Part shown: piece after piece, positions 3,749-17,612 of the stretch
Layout: the number at the start of each line of letters is the position of its first letter
Position numbering within the stretch: the stretch's first letter is position 1
Assembly (NCBI GenBank): GCA_964588985.1
Contig: CAZPQW010000039.1
Coordinates: forward strand, 1 to 18,305
Reading direction: 5' to 3'
DNA length: 18,305 nt
Source: an uncultured Solirubrobacteraceae bacterium
GTDB taxonomy: Bacteria > Actinomycetota > Thermoleophilia > Solirubrobacterales > Solirubrobacteraceae
Program-made: the position numbers and the translations under genes
The notes under the pieces: generated by a model
Database searches by the model: none
What the model was told of the DNA's origin: nothing
The model's input: the letters and a program-made list of their open reading frames with translations, nothing else

Positions 3749-3967
3749 ATGGAGCCCAAGGCGAGAACACCTCTTCTTTCGGTCGGTCACGAGGCTGAGT
3801 GGGCGGAGATCAATCGCGAAGAGACGGAGCAGCTTCGCGCGAGCAACATGGCATTGACGCCCGCCCAGCGGCTCGAGGTCGGGCAAAGACTTTCTCAGCA
3901 GGCTGTCTCCCTGCTAGCGGCCGCGATAAGAACCGGCCATGTCCCCAGACGAGCTCTCTGGTCCTGA
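3749..3967 (+). CDS. Small hypothetical protein (72 aa), possible antitoxin or partner of the downstream nucleotidyltransferase
   Basis: TAGAAT at 3737-3742 lies 6 nt before ATG 3749 (alternative start GTG 3743 with GGAG). Predicted helical, with ...NMALTPAQRLEVGQRLS.... Overlaps the next gene by 29 nt. Confidence 0.6.
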   Translation: MEPKARTPLLSVGHEAEWAEINREETEQLRASNMALTPAQRLEVGQRLSQQAVSLLAAAIRTGHVPRRALWS

Positions 3968-4451
3968 CCTCGCGGGCGTCGTCGCTGACGCCTATGCGGT
4001 CGGGCTCGAGTATGTCGTTATCGGTGGCTTCAGCGTTATCTACCACGGCTACGTTCGCGCGACCAAAGACAGCGATCTGCTCGTTCCCGATGGTCCCGAC
4101 GCCGACGCTGCGGTGCTGCGCTTTCTCGAGCGTGTAGAGGGGAGGCGTTTGTACGACGGCAAGGTGCTGGCGCCCGCCGATGTCGCAGATGCTCAACACC
4201 TGCGCATCAACTGCCGCCACGGCATTGTCGACATCATGCGTGGAGGGTTGCCGCCTCTGGACTACGCCACGGTTGCCGCGCGTGCCGAACTCGTTGAGTT
4301 CCTCGGGCAGAAAGTTCGCATCGCGGGTCTGGTGAGCGTGGTGGGCTTCAAGCGCCTGGCAGGCCGACCTCAGGATCGCCTGGACCTCGCAGAACTCGAA
4401 GGCATACACCCCGAGCTTCCGATCGAGCCGATCCCCGGCCTCGACGAGTAG
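3939..4451 (+). CDS. Pol-beta-superfamily nucleotidyltransferase (DUF6036/AbiEii-like)
   Basis: N-terminal YVVIGGFSVIYHGYVRATKDSDLLV (GG..., RxTxDxD), a central VDIM strand, and C-terminal KRLAGRPQDRLDL. Confidence 0.8.
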   Translation: MSPDELSGPDLAGVVADAYAVGLEYVVIGGFSVIYHGYVRATKDSDLLVPDGPDADAAVLRFLERVEGRRLYDGKVLAPADVADAQHLRINCRHGIVDIMRGGLPPLDYATVAARAELVEFLGQKVRIAGLVSVVGFKRLAGRPQDRLDLAELEGIHPELPIEPIPGLDE

Positions 4452-4532: not shown

Positions 4533-4569
4533 CGCGGCGTCAGTGGAAACCGACGAAGGGGATGCGGGG

Positions 4570-5562
4570 ATGATTCGACTGAGGATGTTCGGGCTGTGCC
4601 TGATGGCGGTCATGGCCATCGGCGCGGTCGCCGCGGCGAGCGCTTCGGCGGAAGCGCCCGAATACGGCAGGTGCATCAAAAAAGCGAAAACCGAAGGCGC
4701 TGGGTTCTCGGACTCGAACTGCGGCACGGCCGTCGGCGCGGAAGGCAAATACGAATGGCTCGCGGGCCCCGGCCCGAAAGCGAAATTCACTTCGATCGAA
4801 CGTTTCATCTTCTCCGGGAAATACACCAACTGCCTGCGTGCCCGGGGCGAAGAAGAAATCGCCGAACAGAAGCGCAAAGAAGCCGAAACGGCTCCGGAAC
4901 CGGAAAAAGCGAGGCTCATACGCGAAGCCGAAGAACACGAACACGTTGCTGAAGAACGGCGGGCGAAAGCCAAACTCAGCAAGGCCGAATGCGAAACGCT
5001 GATCGAAGAAGAACGCGCGAAAGCGCCGGCAGTGTTGGAAACGGTGACGGGCCTGCAGGTGACGTGCGGCGGCGTGACGAGCGCCGGCGAATACACCGGC
5101 GTGAAAACCGTGGGCAACCTCACGACGACGTTCACCGAATGTGCAATCGCGGGCTTTTCGTGCCAGTCCGCGGGGGCCGAAGAAGGCGAAATTGCGACGA
5201 ACACGCTCGACGGGTCACTGGGTGTGGTGCAGAAAGAAGAACCGCTCACGAAAGTCAAAGTCAAAATCGGCCTCGACCTCTACCCGGCGGAAGGCTCGGC
5301 GGTGGCGGAATTCAGCTGCGACGGAGTGCCGATCGCAGTGACGGGGTCGGTGATCCACGAGGTGAAAGCCAACAAAATGGTGCTCACCGAATCGGAAAAA
5401 TTCGCTCAGAGCAAAGGCAAACAGAAACCGGAAAAATTCGAAGGTCAGCCGGCGGATGTGTTCGAGACCTCGCTGGGCGGCGGTCCGAGCGTGCAGTCCG
5501 GCCTGATGCTGAAGGGCGAACTGACGAACGAAGAAAAGATCGAGGTCAACTCGATCGTCTGA
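4570..5562 (+). CDS. Secreted hypothetical protein, Cys-rich and Glu/Lys-rich (330 aa)
   Basis: ATG 4570 begins a Sec signal peptide MIRLRMFGLCLMAVMAIGAVAAASASA|E. The mature part has 8 Cys and a beta-strand-like pattern with a charged helical insert. Confidence 0.85.
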   Translation: MIRLRMFGLCLMAVMAIGAVAAASASAEAPEYGRCIKKAKTEGAGFSDSNCGTAVGAEGKYEWLAGPGPKAKFTSIERFIFSGKYTNCLRARGEEEIAEQKRKEAETAPEPEKARLIREAEEHEHVAEERRAKAKLSKAECETLIEEERAKAPAVLETVTGLQVTCGGVTSAGEYTGVKTVGNLTTTFTECAIAGFSCQSAGAEEGEIATNTLDGSLGVVQKEEPLTKVKVKIGLDLYPAEGSAVAEFSCDGVPIAVTGSVIHEVKANKMVLTESEKFAQSKGKQKPEKFEGQPADVFETSLGGGPSVQSGLMLKGELTNEEKIEVNSIV

Positions 5563-13405: not shown

Positions 13406-13858
13406 ATGGCCAAGACCCCGCAGGTCGGCGAGCCGGCTCCCGATTTCGAGCTGCCGGGCACCGAGGGCCCGTTCCGGCTCTCAGAGCACCGCGGCGAGCG
13501 TGTGGTGCTGCTGTTCTACCCAGGCGACAAAACCCTCGTCTGCACCAAACAGTTCTGCTCCTACCGTGACCGCGCCGAGGACTTCGCCTCCCTGAACGCG
13601 ACCGTCGTGGGAATCTCCTCCCAGGACCTCGACTCGCACGCGGCGTTCATCGCCCAGCATGGGCTGAACGTGCCGCTGCTGTCGGACGTGGACCGGCAGG
13701 TGGCGATGGAGTACAGCGCATTCTCGCCAAGGCTCGGGACCAAGCGCGCGGTGATCGTCATCGATGAGGAGGGGGTTGTGCGGCACCGGCACGATCATCT
13801 GCTGGGGCTGGACTATCAGTCGGTGGATGAGTTGAAGGGTGTTTTGGACGGGATTTAG
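13406..13858 (+). CDS. bcp: Peroxiredoxin, BCP/PrxQ subfamily
   Basis: VGEPAPDFEL, FYPGDKTLVCTKQFCSYRD (PxxxTxxC plus CxxxxC), GISSQD, PLLSD and KRAVIVIDEEG. Confidence 0.93.
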   Translation: MAKTPQVGEPAPDFELPGTEGPFRLSEHRGERVVLLFYPGDKTLVCTKQFCSYRDRAEDFASLNATVVGISSQDLDSHAAFIAQHGLNVPLLSDVDRQVAMEYSAFSPRLGTKRAVIVIDEEGVVRHRHDHLLGLDYQSVDELKGVLDGI

Positions 13859-13933
13859 CAGGGCTGCGCATTAGGCAATTGCTCCGCTTTGCGCAGATGT
13901 ACTTCTGTCCTACAAGTTGTCGCGTTTCCGAAC

Positions 13934-14079
13934 CTTCGCTGTGCAACCCTGCTCGAGCGCAGTGAAGTGCCGGAGGCACGAAGCGAAGAGTCGAGCCCGG
14001 TTGCACTGTCACCCACTGCATCGCCGGAGGCGGCAGGGTTGTAAACAGCCGGCCGGTGCCCTATCTGTTGTGGAGTGAC
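13934..14079 (+). ncRNA. Candidate structured cis-regulatory leader RNA (unassigned); alternatively a REP-like palindromic element
   Basis: Nested helices 13941-48/13999-14006, 13951-56/13991-96 and 13967-71/13975-79; second hairpin 14016-14036; alternative helix 13942-52/14033-43; 14008-16 is complementary to the start region 14070-79. Confidence 0.45.
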
Positions 14080-14737
14080 CCATCGGCCTACGACCGAGAC
14101 CACCTACAGACAACTTGTCCGCGAAGCAAGGGAGCGCCTTCGTCTGAACCCCTGTCAAGGGGCAGACCAGCTCGCAAAGGCGCTCGCATGTAGCGAGCGC
14201 ACACTGAACCGTGCGTTTGCGAGTGCTGGGACCACGATGCGTGACGACCGGAAGCGCCTCCGCTTGGATCGTGCCGCGCTTGTACTTCTAGGCGACAAAC
14301 CACCTTCAGAGGCTGCGCAGCGCGCTGGCTACGCGTCATCGCGACAGCTCGCTGAACCATTTCGCACGCAATTCGGGGTGACACCCAGTCGCATCCGAGA
14401 GATCGGTCGTGCTGAGAAGACAGTTCGCTGGCAGGCAAGCCGACGTGGCCCGTATAAGGGCTCGTGGCAGCAATATAGGCGTAGGCAGATGTGGCGCGCA
14501 GCGCGGCGCGTACTCCGTGCCGCCCATGCCGAACTCACGACAGGGACTTTGCCAGCCGACAAGGTCGAGCGCGCGTTGAAGCTGAAACTGCCGCGCCCGC
14601 GGGAGCCAAAGGCGCCATTGGCGCTCTACGAGGTTTTCGGCCCCGATGCGCGAGTGGTGCCGGAGGATCTTCTTCGACAGGTATGGGCCTCTCGTAGAGC
14701 AGTGCAGGAGGCTCAACGGTCACGCGGATCGACATGA
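14075..14737 (+). CDS. AraC-family helix-turn-helix protein with N-terminal HTH and unknown basic C-terminal half
   Basis: DQLAKALACSERTLNRAF...RLRLDRAALVLL...SEAAQRAGYASSRQLAEPFRTQFGVTPSRIR matches the AraC double-HTH pattern within residues of about 28-110. Confidence 0.8.
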   Translation: MTHRPTTETTYRQLVREARERLRLNPCQGADQLAKALACSERTLNRAFASAGTTMRDDRKRLRLDRAALVLLGDKPPSEAAQRAGYASSRQLAEPFRTQFGVTPSRIREIGRAEKTVRWQASRRGPYKGSWQQYRRRQMWRAARRVLRAAHAELTTGTLPADKVERALKLKLPRPREPKAPLALYEVFGPDARVVPEDLLRQVWASRRAVQEAQRSRGST

Positions 14738-14747
14738 GGGGCTCTCG

Positions 14748-14873
14748 ATGGGACACTTGACATCAGCAGAGGTCCTCACGGCTCTTGGGCTCCGTGCTCT
14801 CTGGAAGGCTCCGGAGTGGACTCTCAAGGTTGTCTTGGTTATCGATGCCATTAGGCTCCGGCGTGACCGGTGA
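14748..14873 (+). CDS. Putative 41-aa small protein
   Basis: ATG lies 10 nt after the AraC stop, preceded by GAGGGG. Sequence MGHLTSAEVLTALGLRALWKAPEWTLKVVLVIDAIRLRRDR is amphipathic with a basic end. Confidence 0.4.
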   Translation: MGHLTSAEVLTALGLRALWKAPEWTLKVVLVIDAIRLRRDR

Positions 14874-14945
14874 ATTCAGAAGAGTGCATCGCCATCGGTA
14901 AAGTCTCGGCGAGGAGATCAGGTACTTGGGTCGGGTGCCCCCCGA

Positions 14946-15011
14946 TCGCGCAAGTACGTCCTCTTGGTAATCAAGCAGAAAACCGATCTGTACTCCCAGG
15001 TTCTCTGCAGG
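14946..15011 (-). pseudogene. C-terminal remnant of a MazF/PemK-type toxin
   Basis: PAENLGVQIGFLLDYQEDVLAR resembles the last strand and helix of PemK/MazF (..LgrxIGxL...e..l). It begins right after the antitoxin remnant; the N-terminal part is absent. Confidence 0.5.
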
Positions 15012-15012
15012 A

Positions 15013-15235
15013 CTAAACGAGCTAGGTAGGCAAGCCGCGCGCGTACTCGGCCAACCCCGCGAGATCGCGATCTGGACCAGTGCGGGCAAGGATCTCGGCG
15101 TCGCGGGCGCCGACGCTCGCGTTCGAGGACCTGAATCACGACGTATGCCCGGCTTCGCCCACCGCCGGAAACGACAACCTCATCGATGAAAGCCGCGAGC
15201 TTGTCAGGTAGGCAAATTGCGATCTGAGTGCTCAT
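15013..15235 (-). pseudogene. Frameshifted ribbon-helix-helix antitoxin (MazE-like)
   Basis: MSTQIAICLPDKLAAFIDEVVVSGGGRSRAYVVIQVLERERR, then a frame change near 15110 gives ARDAEILARTGPDRDLAGLAEYARGLPT*LV*. The RHH strand-helix-helix pattern is clear. Confidence 0.7.
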
Positions 15236-15386
15236 GGGCGGTGTCCTGAACGTCTGCGATCTCTCCTGACAGCATTTCGAGGTCCTTGTCGAGTGTTGGA
15301 TCGTGTGGCGTGGCCCACAAGTCAGCCAGCTCGGCGCTTGGTACCCACTGCTGTTTGCGGACGGGGTTTTGCGGGTTCGTTGCCAT
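15204..15386 (-). CDS. 60-aa ORF resembling the C-terminal half of a Phd/YefM-type antitoxin (possibly a fragment)
   Basis: Strong GGAGG SD directly after the ppk1 stop. PVRKQQWVPSAELADLWATPHDPTLDKDLEMLSGEIAD has an acidic antitoxin-like tail and no DNA-binding N-domain. Confidence 0.45.
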   Translation of the reverse strand: MATNPQNPVRKQQWVPSAELADLWATPHDPTLDKDLEMLSGEIADVQDTAHEHSDRNLPT

Positions 15387-15395
15387 GGTCCTCCG

Positions 15396-17612
15396 CTAGT
15401 GCCCCCCAACCCCCAACCGCCCCGCATCCTCCCGCCGCTCCGAAGGCCGCTCGGTCCCCGCACGAGCCGCATAGATATCAGCCAGCTCCAGCTGCAAGCT
15501 CCGCGGCTTCTCCCCGGGCCCAGGCGCCAGCCTCCGCCACTCCCCATCCCCGTCGAGATCCCAAGCGTTCTGGTTGTCAGCAAACGCCCGATCGAGCGAG
15601 TCCAGCAGCTCGGCCTGCAGCTCGGGGTTCTCTACGGGCACGGCAAGCTCGACGCGGTGGTCGAGGTTGCGCGGCATGAGGTCGGCGGAGGCGATGAACA
15701 CGGTGTGCTCGCCGTCGCGCTCGAACGTGTAGATGCGCGAGTGCTCGAGCAGGCGCCCGACGATCGAGACGACGCGGATGTTCTCCGACAGGCCCGGGAC
15801 ACCCGGGCGCAGGCAGCAGATGCCGCGCACGTTCAAGTCCACGCGCACGCCCGCCTGTGAGGCGGCGTAGAGCGCGCGGATACAGCGGCCGTCGACGAGC
15901 GAGTTCATCTTCATGGCGATCCGCGCGGGCGTCTGCTCGCTGTGCGCGGCGACGGTCTTCTCGATCTCCGCGATGATGCCGTCGCGCAGCTGGTTGGGGG
16001 CCATCAGCACCTTGCGGTAGTGCAGGGGGCGTCCGTAGCCGGTGAGGTAGTTGAACATGTCCGCCACGTCGGCGCCGATCTGCTCGTCGGTGGTGAACAG
16101 GCCGAAGTCGGTGTAGAGGCGCGCGGTGGCGGAGTGGTAGTTGCCGGTGCCGATGTGCACGTAGTTGCGCACGCCGTCGCCCTCGCGGCGCACCACGAGC
16201 ACGCACTTGGCGTGGGTCTTCAGCGCCGGCTGGCCGTAGACGACGTGCACCCCGGCCTCCTCCAGCGCCTTCGCCCAGTGGATGTTCATGCGCTCGTCGA
16301 AGCGCGCCTGCAGCTCGACCAGCGCTACCGCCTGCTTGCCGCGCTCGGTTGCGTCGATCAGCGCTGGCACCAGCGGCGAGTCGTCGCTCGTGCGGTACAC
16401 CGTCTGCTTGATCGCGAGCACGTTCGGGTCGGCGACCGCCTGCTCGACGAAGCGCTCCACGGAGGTGGAGAACGACTCGTAGGGGTGGTGCACGAGCAGG
16501 TCGCCTTCGCGCATCGCGCCGAGCACGTCCGGGCGCTCGCCCTCGTGGCGCAGCAGACGCGGGTGGGTGATGCCGACGATCGTCTCTTCGCGCAGCTCAG
16601 CGTGGCCGGGGAGCTTCACGATCTGCCACAGCGCGCCCATGTCGAGCAGGCCGTCGACGGGGTAGATCTCCTCCTCCTGCACGCCCAGGAGTACCGTGAG
16701 CGCCTCGCGCAGCTGGTCGGAGCAGTGTGCGCCGACCTCCACGCGCACGACCTCGCCGAAGCGCCTGCGGCGCAGCTCGTCCTCGACCGCCTGCAGCAGG
16801 TCGGCGGCGTCGTCGGAGACCTCCAGGTCGGCGTCGCGGGTGACCCGGAAGGTGTCGTAGTCGGCGATCTCCATCCCCGGGAACAGCGCGTCGAGGTGGT
16901 GGGCGATCACGTCCTCCAGCGGTACCAGCAGCGCCGGCTCGGGTGCGGGCTGCTTGAGCGTGACGAATCGCGGCAGGATCTCCGTGGGGACCTTCACGCG
17001 CGCGAACACCGTCTGGTCGTTGACCGGATCGCGCACGAGCACCGCGAGGCTGAGCGACAGGTTCGAGATGTAGGGGAAGGGTCGCCCGGGAGCGACCGCG
17101 AGCGGGGTTAGGGCGGGGAAGATCGCCTTCTGGAAGTGCTTGGCGAGTTCCGCGCGGCGGTCTTCGTCGAGCTCGTCCACGCCCACCACGCGGATGTCGT
17201 GCTCGGCGAGCGCCGGGCGCAGCCGCCGTTCGAAGCAGTCGGTCAGCCGCTCGCTTAGCCCGAGCGCGCGCTCGCGGATCAGCGCAATCGTCTCGGAGGG
17301 GATGCGCCCGTCCTGGCTCGCCTTCTCCACGCCGGCGTCGATCTGGTCGCGCAGGCCGGCGACGCGCACCATGTAGAACTCGTCGAGGTTGGTGGTGTAG
17401 ATCGCGCAGAACTTCACGCGCTCCAGCAGCGGCACACGCTCGTCCTCCGCGAGTTGCAGCACGCGGTCGTTGAAGTCCAGCCATGAGACCTCGCGGTTGA
17501 AGAACAGCGACGACTCCGCTGCGCTGTCGCCCCCTCCGCCGCCTGGTGGGTGCCCGTCGAGCTCGTGGAGCTCGCTCAGGTCTTGTAGCTGATGTTCACG
17601 ATCTCCTTGCAT
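15396..17612 (-). CDS. ppk1: Polyphosphate kinase 1
   Basis: FFNREVSWLDFNDRVLQLA, NLDEFYMVRVAGL, PFPYISNLSL, LVHHPYESF (phospho-His), KTHAK, HIGTGNYH, LEHSRIY and SADLMPRNLDHRVE. Confidence 0.98.
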   Translation of the reverse strand: MQGDREHQLQDLSELHELDGHPPGGGGGDSAAESSLFFNREVSWLDFNDRVLQLAEDERVPLLERVKFCAIYTTNLDEFYMVRVAGLRDQIDAGVEKASQDGRIPSETIALIRERALGLSERLTDCFERRLRPALAEHDIRVVGVDELDEDRRAELAKHFQKAIFPALTPLAVAPGRPFPYISNLSLSLAVLVRDPVNDQTVFARVKVPTEILPRFVTLKQPAPEPALLVPLEDVIAHHLDALFPGMEIADYDTFRVTRDADLEVSDDAADLLQAVEDELRRRRFGEVVRVEVGAHCSDQLREALTVLLGVQEEEIYPVDGLLDMGALWQIVKLPGHAELREETIVGITHPRLLRHEGERPDVLGAMREGDLLVHHPYESFSTSVERFVEQAVADPNVLAIKQTVYRTSDDSPLVPALIDATERGKQAVALVELQARFDERMNIHWAKALEEAGVHVVYGQPALKTHAKCVLVVRREGDGVRNYVHIGTGNYHSATARLYTDFGLFTTDEQIGADVADMFNYLTGYGRPLHYRKVLMAPNQLRDGIIAEIEKTVAAHSEQTPARIAMKMNSLVDGRCIRALYAASQAGVRVDLNVRGICCLRPGVPGLSENIRVVSIVGRLLEHSRIYTFERDGEHTVFIASADLMPRNLDHRVELAVPVENPELQAELLDSLDRAFADNQNAWDLDGDGEWRRLAPGPGEKPRSLQLELADIYAARAGTERPSERREDAGRLGVGGH

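Follow-up and report, generated by a model that had tools for sequence, protein, structure and literature searches.

The window analysed here is a stretch of 18,305 nucleotides from an uncultured bacterium of the Solirubrobacteraceae. Between two of its core genes, one encoding an AhpC/TSA (bcp-like) peroxiredoxin and the other the convergent ppk1, the GC profile reveals a low-GC insert of about 1.5 kb, which holds a structured element, a gene for an AraC-type regulator, a 41-aa ORF and a broken gene that we take to be antitoxin-like (Table 1). The structured element and the AraC gene are parts of a small mobile cassette in islands of the Solirubrobacteraceae, a poorly studied soil lineage.

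Table 1. Features of the insert and its borders (window coordinates)
Feature	Position	Strand	Basis or remark
AhpC/TSA (bcp-like) peroxiredoxin, core gene	13406..13858	+	Pfam
Conserved 27-nt block 5' of hairpin 1, largely unpaired in the hairpin-1 fold	13914..13940	+	blastn, alignments
Hairpin 1 (66 nt)	13941..14006	+	z -3.3, paired columns
Outer stem of hairpin 1	GTGCAACC 13941-48 / GGTTGCAC 13999-14006	+	sequence
Inner stem of hairpin 1	GCTCGA 13951-56 / TCGAGC 13991-96	+	sequence
Purine-rich internal loop of hairpin 1	13957-66/13980-90	+	
Terminal stem-loop of hairpin 1, GTGCC-GGA-GGCAC (C-GGA-G loop)	13967-79	+	sequence
11-bp alternative helix	13942-52/14033-43	+	sequence
Start-covering helix	GTCACCCAC 14008-16 over GTGGAGTGAC 14070-79	+	sequence
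Hairpin 2 (CTGC/GCAG, CGCC-GGA-GGCG)	14013..14038	+	read from sequence
-35-like box TTGTAA, putative promoter element	14039..14044	+	alignment A5
-10-like box CCTATCTG	14060..14067	+	starts 15-16 nt before the start codon
AraC/XylS-type regulator, 220 aa	14075..14737	+	Pfam, AlphaFold, Foldseek
41-aa ORF, Shine-Dalgarno present	14748..14873	+	54-aa counterpart after the L040 homologue
Frameshifted remnant of a small antitoxin-like gene	15022..15235	-	translations
ppk1, convergent core gene, other border of the insert	15396..17612	-	Pfam, GC profile

The insert and its AraC-type gene

Among 29 relatives, the spacing from bcp to ppk1 is 40-97 nt in 12 and 0.4-1.3 kb in 4; in the other 13, ppk1 lies outside the 1.5 kb examined. 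Several relatives carry partial AhpC copies, and in all three that were opened (L127, L128 and L129) a displaced 3' part of the gene is found kilobases downstream, beginning at the same codon (window 13523). One of these three copies adjoins conjugation-like genes. The shared starting codon of the displaced copies marks the AhpC gene as an integration hotspot for islands in the genus.

Several smaller observations concern the surroundings. The first 40 aa of the antitoxin-like remnant have no match in Pfam. ARAGORN calls a tRNA-Arg(GCG) on the opposite strand inside this broken gene (15065-15142); the call is probably false, since Rfam finds no tRNA there. Directly 3' of the AhpC stop codon is an inverted repeat, CTGCGCA / TGCGCAG (13864-13898), which is possibly the terminator stem of the AhpC gene itself. 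The left half of the window contains a lower-GC gene pair (3939-4451 and 4543-5562); one ORF of the pair encodes a nucleotidyltransferase-like protein of 170 aa (weak DUF6036), the other a secreted-looking protein of 339 aa with no Pfam match.

The gene downstream of the structured element had been assigned to the AraC type from its translation, and Pfam agrees: HTH_18 (PF12833) matches residues 33-109 with an E value of 8.8e-16, above the Pfam cut-off. The protein consists of an N-terminal helix, this domain and an Arg-rich, basic, all-helical C-terminal part that belongs to no named family. Its AlphaFold model has a pLDDT of 93. Matches to the PDB found with Foldseek cover the AraC domain only, and the Atlas gave no usable feature match for residues 105-205. 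By Foldseek the protein resembles MarA, SoxS and the DNA-binding domain of AdpA, sharing their AraC fold with two HTH motifs and lacking, as they do, an effector domain at the N terminus; unlike them, it carries the extra C-terminal part of about 100 aa.

This subfamily is rare. BLASTP gave 12 matches, nine of them close homologues at 62-75% identity. There is one close match in 300 genomes of the genus and none in 400 genomes of the family; two loci are present among all genome contigs and eight in metagenomes. A scan of genome contigs with the single protein found none, and a viral fold search returned generic AraC matches only. The nearest relatives are a shorter, single-domain paralogue that is widespread, being present in 302 of 401 family genomes (E 1e-14). 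This tally includes three genomes marked unpublished, whose one fetched locus (L047) has no start and is left out of the counts of paralogue loci given below.

In 20 of 28 loci (within L043-L071) the paralogue is divergent from a gene that we presume to be CBS-like, and a motif, TGCAAC-N3-TGY-CKCAA, is shared over the start site of that gene. The host genome retains the motif (G000 C2 near 1882, score 30.7) with the paralogue not adjacent.

The 41-aa ORF is probably the second gene of the cassette. Its Shine-Dalgarno sequence scores -6.9 kcal/mol; it has no Pfam match and no protein homologue was found. The gene after AraC varies by clade, being a hydrophobic peptide of 41-54 aa in one (window 14748-14873, L040 6607-6771) and a membrane-like protein of 113-139 aa in the other (L032 1294-1713, L037 401-742). 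Neither clade's gene has a match in Pfam.

The structured element and its conservation

All the helices described in the sequence-only reading have their arms at the coordinates it gave (Table 1), CTTCGCT (13934-40) with AGCGAAG (13982-88) among them; a 3-bp CGC/GCG helix within hairpin 1 is present but marginal. The fold is better than that of shuffled sequences: 13938-14010 has a z score of -3.33 on the + strand and -3.28 on the - strand, with none of 200 shuffles as good, and the longer stretch 13934-14079 scores -2.67 (+; 4 of 200 shuffles as good) and -2.60 (-). A wider stretch, 13900-14100, is unexceptional (-1.13 and -0.07). A G-U pair had been noted as working on the + strand only; this strand argument is weak, since both strands score alike, as RNA and as DNA. 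The element occurs once in the 3.4-Mb host genome by blastn, nhmmer and a covariance model, which speaks against a repeat of the REP or MITE kind. The impression that it belongs to no known riboswitch class was borne out, as Rfam gives no gathering-level match in the window (best E 3.6 in 13700-15500) and nothing over the element in L032, L038, L090 and L091. A consensus scan for terminator-like or promoter-like sites found none.

Upstream DNA could be read for four close types of homologue besides the window, namely L032, L038, L040 and the L033 type, which comprises L003, L033-L036 and L041, identical over the element stretch. L037, which begins inside the gene, was left out, and the distant L039 (37%) has no match to the element. 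The element is kept upstream of the AraC gene in all four close types. Their blastn matches each start at 13914, with differing flanks, and the distance from element to start codon is fixed at 68-70 nt. Hairpin 1 is the dominant fold in all four homologue types; its z score on the + strand is -4.1 in L032 and -4.6 in L038, and similar on the - strand.

A four-row alignment shows pairing in 82% of 67 cells, has both partners altered in 4 of 21 pairs, and beats shuffled and slid controls; with four related rows only, such covariation is support for the structure rather than proof or a significance test. The outer stem, invariant in 10 of 16 pairs, is uninformative on structure. The terminal stem reads GTGCC-GGA-GGCAC, GATCC-GGA-GGGTC, GGGC-GTCA-GCCC or GGGC-GCTA-GCCC, so that letters and register vary while the pairing and a C-G-closed G..A loop persist. 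The loops are GC-GTCA-GC in L032, GC-GCTA-GC in L038 and CC-GGA-GG in the window, in the L033 type and in hairpin 2 of the window; neither tetraloop of hairpin 1 (L032, L038) is of the GNRA kind. Hairpin 2 is variable in sequence and fold, and ranks 21 of 24 in a cognate-versus-cross test. Owing to two deleted rows in alignment A5, RNAalifold arrived at another 5' fold from it; this 5' hairpin is strong in the window only (p 0.002; others 0.22-0.53). The suggestion that an unannotated structured element is tied to the AraC gene is thus supported by its conservation and covariation upstream of homologues.

In the genus the element is found only beside the AraC gene, which disposes of the idea of a dispersed repeat. 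A 28-nt pattern hit two of 400 genus genomes, both at loci already known beside the gene. The covariance model gave no strong match in 150 genus genomes; of its nine weak matches (E 0.011-0.049) the eight inspected were judged to be chance, as was a weak match in its own genome. No match was found by DNA search in 60 relatives, in plasmids and phages, or in viral contigs searched by protein and by pattern. The literature listings searched showed no paper on the motif; the large motif surveys may hold an unregistered candidate in their supplements.

The contexts are mobile ones. The element stands 14 nt after a tyrosine integrase in L032 and at 2 kb from a tRNA in L038, and in L040 and the L033 type its neighbourhood contains remnants of serine recombinases, PIN and Fic genes, and transposases. 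A replication-relaxation gene occurs in a single island, at a distance of about 19 kb. L040 has lost the hairpin interior and has an IS5-like insertion in the AraC gene, and the L033 type has a deletion running from the hairpin into codon ~72, so that in two of five types a deletion has its breakpoint inside the hairpin. As a separate observation, the L040 cassette has a degenerate direct repeat of 25 nt on either side (L040 4784 and 6838), and less clear versions of it are seen in the L033 type (upstream, L034 3876) and in the window (downstream, ~14895-14925); no convincing family of this repeat was found in the genome.

We rejected the possibility that the element is a lost N-terminal coding stretch. 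The matches of the homologues' N-terminal 'extensions' to the window fall in different frames and run through a stop codon, so the extensions are read-through of non-coding DNA. When back-translated, six of seven (P0002, P0004-P0007, P0013) have TATC 12-13 nt and the 3' arm 76 nt ahead of the start, and four of those six have the 5' arm at 131-133; that of the distant P0014 does not fit. Degenerate back-translation of this kind shows compatibility with the element, not its sequence.

Promoter-like boxes and the proposed switch

The -35-like pattern TTGnnA is kept in all four homologue types read as DNA, and the -10-like box reads CGTATC in L038 and L040 and TCTATC in L032. The layout common to all four is TTGnnA, 17-18 nt, TATC, 7-8 nt and GTG. 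By comparison with the anti-SD motif, no Shine-Dalgarno was found before the AraC GTG in any of the four.

Leaderless starts are common across the host genome: TAnnnT ends 6-7 nt upstream of 180 of 3832 ATG and 121 of 7890 GTG candidate starts, over a background of about 5-10 per position. The TA of the AraC -10-like box sits at the peak distance of these leaderless starts; all four lack T at position 6 of TAnnnT, a letter present in 67-69% of TA sites so placed. Leaderless promoters of this genome are not enriched for TTG 16-18 nt upstream (at 17 nt, 6 of 394), nor is CGTA enriched before starts genome-wide. Of 29 fetched paralogue loci a start was found in 28, of which 23 have CGT[AG] 12-19 nt before it; ATCC stands 16-18 nt upstream of CGT[AG] in 17 of these 23. 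This paralogue promoter (ATCC, 16-18 nt, CGTA) is of the ECF type, CG-type -10 boxes being described as an ECF sigma trait in PMC12019637. The AraC -35-like box differs from the paralogue's ATCC. A matrix built from paralogue sites puts the site at -15/-16 at the top in L038 and L040, in second place in the window and outside the top four in L032. On a side note, four TGATCC-N16-CGTA sites lie within 4 kb of the host genome (G000 C1 274555-278185) and are a candidate small regulon; one is upstream of an ORF that presumably encodes an ECF sigma factor.

By its sequence, 14039-14067 looks like a promoter for a leaderless AraC transcript. The gene is probably leaderless because a Shine-Dalgarno is missing in 4/4 and the -10-like box resembles that of the paralogue. 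Hence transcription likely starts at or just before 14075, in which case the hairpins would lie outside the AraC mRNA.

The sequence-only reading had proposed something different, a switch in a 160-nt 5' leader with hairpin 1 as the aptamer and the alternative helix freeing the start codon, and had named a start downstream of about 14045 as evidence against it; such a start is where the boxes now point. The promoter-like boxes and the lack of a Shine-Dalgarno downstream of the hairpin speak against placement in a leader and leave no ribosome-binding site to hide. Nor is there a conserved upstream promoter, and in L032 integrase coding reaches to 14 nt before the conserved block.

The switch itself was tested by constrained folding, for which three homologues could be used. 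In the window it is convincing: the alternative state lies 0.9-2.6 kcal/mol above the hairpin state, so the two are nearly equal, and it opens the start, raising the unpairing of its first two bases from about 0.1-0.2 to 0.8-0.9. In L032, L038 and L040 the alternative state is 10.9-15.7 kcal/mol worse and the exposure of the start is unchanged, so that none of the three homologues switches. The 11-bp helix, perfect in the window, is imperfect elsewhere and has no compensatory change (cognate rank 6 of 24), although the pairing of its core, GCAA to TTGY, exceeds that of shuffles in each of the four (p 0.000, 0.015, 0.024 and 0.015). The complementarity of CTTCGCT to AGCGAAG is specific to the window, with no counterpart in homologues. 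A helix over the start is possible in each of the four (p 0.005, 0.14, 0.08 and 0.09; cognate rank 2 of 24) and is the best remaining support for a leader. The + strand's purine-rich internal loop also counts for it.

Translational riboswitches and orphan motifs of cis-regulatory RNA (cis-reg in Rfam) are well established, and the element is like them in its covarying hairpin, conserved unpaired purines, fixed distance and association with one gene family. It is unlike them in having no Rfam match, no conserved switch and no Shine-Dalgarno, and in the probable promoter between motif and gene. We do not uphold the riboswitch interpretation, and regard the switch leader as very unlikely.

Possible functions of the hairpin pair

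What, then, might the hairpins do? The suggestion that we favour, at somewhat less than an even chance, is that the pair blocks read-through and insulates the cassette promoter. The element would be the upstream module of the cassette, whose parts are the conserved block, hairpin 1, hairpin 2, promoter, AraC regulator and small ORF. A weak promoter belonging to the regulator, at 14039-14067, would drive its leaderless transcription. The hairpins would fold in RNA arriving from upstream, either by read-through of the preceding gene or from a weak start near 13912. RNA polymerase would pause or stop at the pair without a U-tract, and the regulator's promoter would stay insulated wherever the cassette lands.

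We favour such an insulating pause or terminator because the hairpins appear to lie outside the mRNA, because the upstream ORF is co-directional in 5/5 contexts, so that read-through would reach the hairpins, and because terminators made of hairpin clusters with no U-tract are reported for Actinobacteria. A test for an intrinsic terminator finds the stable GC-rich hairpin downstream of a co-directional gene and no U-tract after the stem. According to PMC8355165, nearly 90% of M. tuberculosis terminator structures are without a pure U trail, and hairpin clusters can terminate. The locus is like the tandem or clustered terminators described there in having two hairpins in a row, the first strong and GC-rich, with no U-run, a co-directional gene before them and a promoter after; it is unlike them in that the element is 66 nt long, has a conserved internal loop and 5' block, and travels with the downstream gene. 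Stems that covary or change register and yet stay paired also count for an insulating hairpin. Against it stand the conserved 27-nt 5' block and purine-rich internal loop, which a plain terminator does not need, the atypical promoter boxes with a matrix that misses L032, the consensus scan that showed neither a terminator-like nor a promoter-like site, the possible start-covering helix and the poor conservation of hairpin 2.

Another suggestion, unlikely in our estimate, is that the fold works at the DNA level. As a cruciform, or as a hairpin of the single + strand, with an extra-stable mini-hairpin cap, it could be recognised in transfer, replication or recombination of the island, or could modulate the promoter 30 nt downstream. 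DNA mini-hairpins, according to PMC13037366, have the form GCGNNAGC or GCGNAGC, are found at phage and plasmid priming sites, where CCGAAGG and GCGTTAGC variants are included, and are much less stable as RNA. The loops of L032 and L038 fit exactly the motif given there, and the window and the L033 type have the CC-GNA-GG variant; since the loops fit this motif and not GNRA, a role at the DNA level has some plausibility. As the sequences are related, their loop letters could simply reflect common ancestry. Loop and closing pairs are like those of the G4, St-1 and alpha3 origins and of RSF1010 ssiA (PMC13037366); unlike them, the element has no primase or origin genes nearby and stands before a promoter in a chromosomal island. 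Folding of hairpin 1 as DNA, with z scores of -2.6 to -5.2, agrees with a DNA role, as do the integrases, serine recombinases and replication-relaxation gene in its contexts and the deletions that break the hairpin in two types. On the other side, there is one copy per cassette with no partner site, no relaxase or primase gene travels with it, and the constant spacing from the start codon argues for control of transcription.

Integron attC sites have RYYYAAC / GTTRRRY ends, an unpaired central spacer and an arrangement in arrays. The element was compared with them and rejected, which also weakens the DNA reading: its ends are GTGCAAC / GTTGCAC, the 3' end in L032 is GGTGCAC, the spacer is fully paired in L038 and there is no second site. 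On inspection we also set aside readings of the element as a kink-turn, T-box, 6S or single-strand promoter.

It is decidedly improbable that 13914-14043 is a stand-alone RNA of about 130 nt, starting weakly near 13912 and ending at hairpin 2, whose internal loop binds a protein in feedback control. The sharp onset of conservation at 13914 in all contexts and the conserved unpaired segments would suit such an RNA, and in the window the best score for a second -10-like box falls at 13898, with similar letters before L033 and L040; but the box is not conserved in L032 and L038, whose flanks are unrelated, and pairing of the RNA to the cassette mRNA does not exceed shuffles (best -23.8 versus -21.8 to -29.6). 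The simplest partner, we propose, would be the C-terminal part of the regulator, Arg-rich, all-helical and of no known family. A broader conjecture, and a distinctly unlikely one, is that the stand-alone AraC protein with its new basic C-terminal domain recognises the hairpin beside its own gene, either as a mini-hairpin-capped DNA arm or as an RNA copy, and so senses single-stranded DNA or its own small RNA rather than a metabolite. If correct, this would be an undescribed kind of two-part module in actinobacterial islands.

Finally, the conserved arms could be an operator palindrome in duplex DNA, with TGCAAC inverted at -133 and -75 and a third box over the -35, bound by an AraC-type or other regulator, the inner pairing being incidental. 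AraC proteins typically bind near -35, TGCAAC/GTTGCA hexamers also occur around the paralogue's promoter, and the unvarying pairs of the outer stem would suit binding boxes too. Nevertheless, the matrix for the paralogue-linked motif scores the arms at no more than 2.3, versus 24.6-32.8 for its 12 training sites, and the inner and terminal stems alter sequence and register while keeping their pairing. We consider an operator very doubtful.

Whatever its function is, the element, rare and of a familiar general kind, adds an uncatalogued covarying structured motif that goes one-to-one with a rare AraC subfamily bearing an unnamed C-terminal domain. It is also a cautionary case, in which a switch convincing in one genome is gone in its homologues. 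As an insulating terminator it would be of modest interest, an example of how a small cassette preserves its regulation on moving from one island to another. Should it prove to be a DNA mini-hairpin or an RNA bound by protein, it would represent a new mode of control for an AraC protein.
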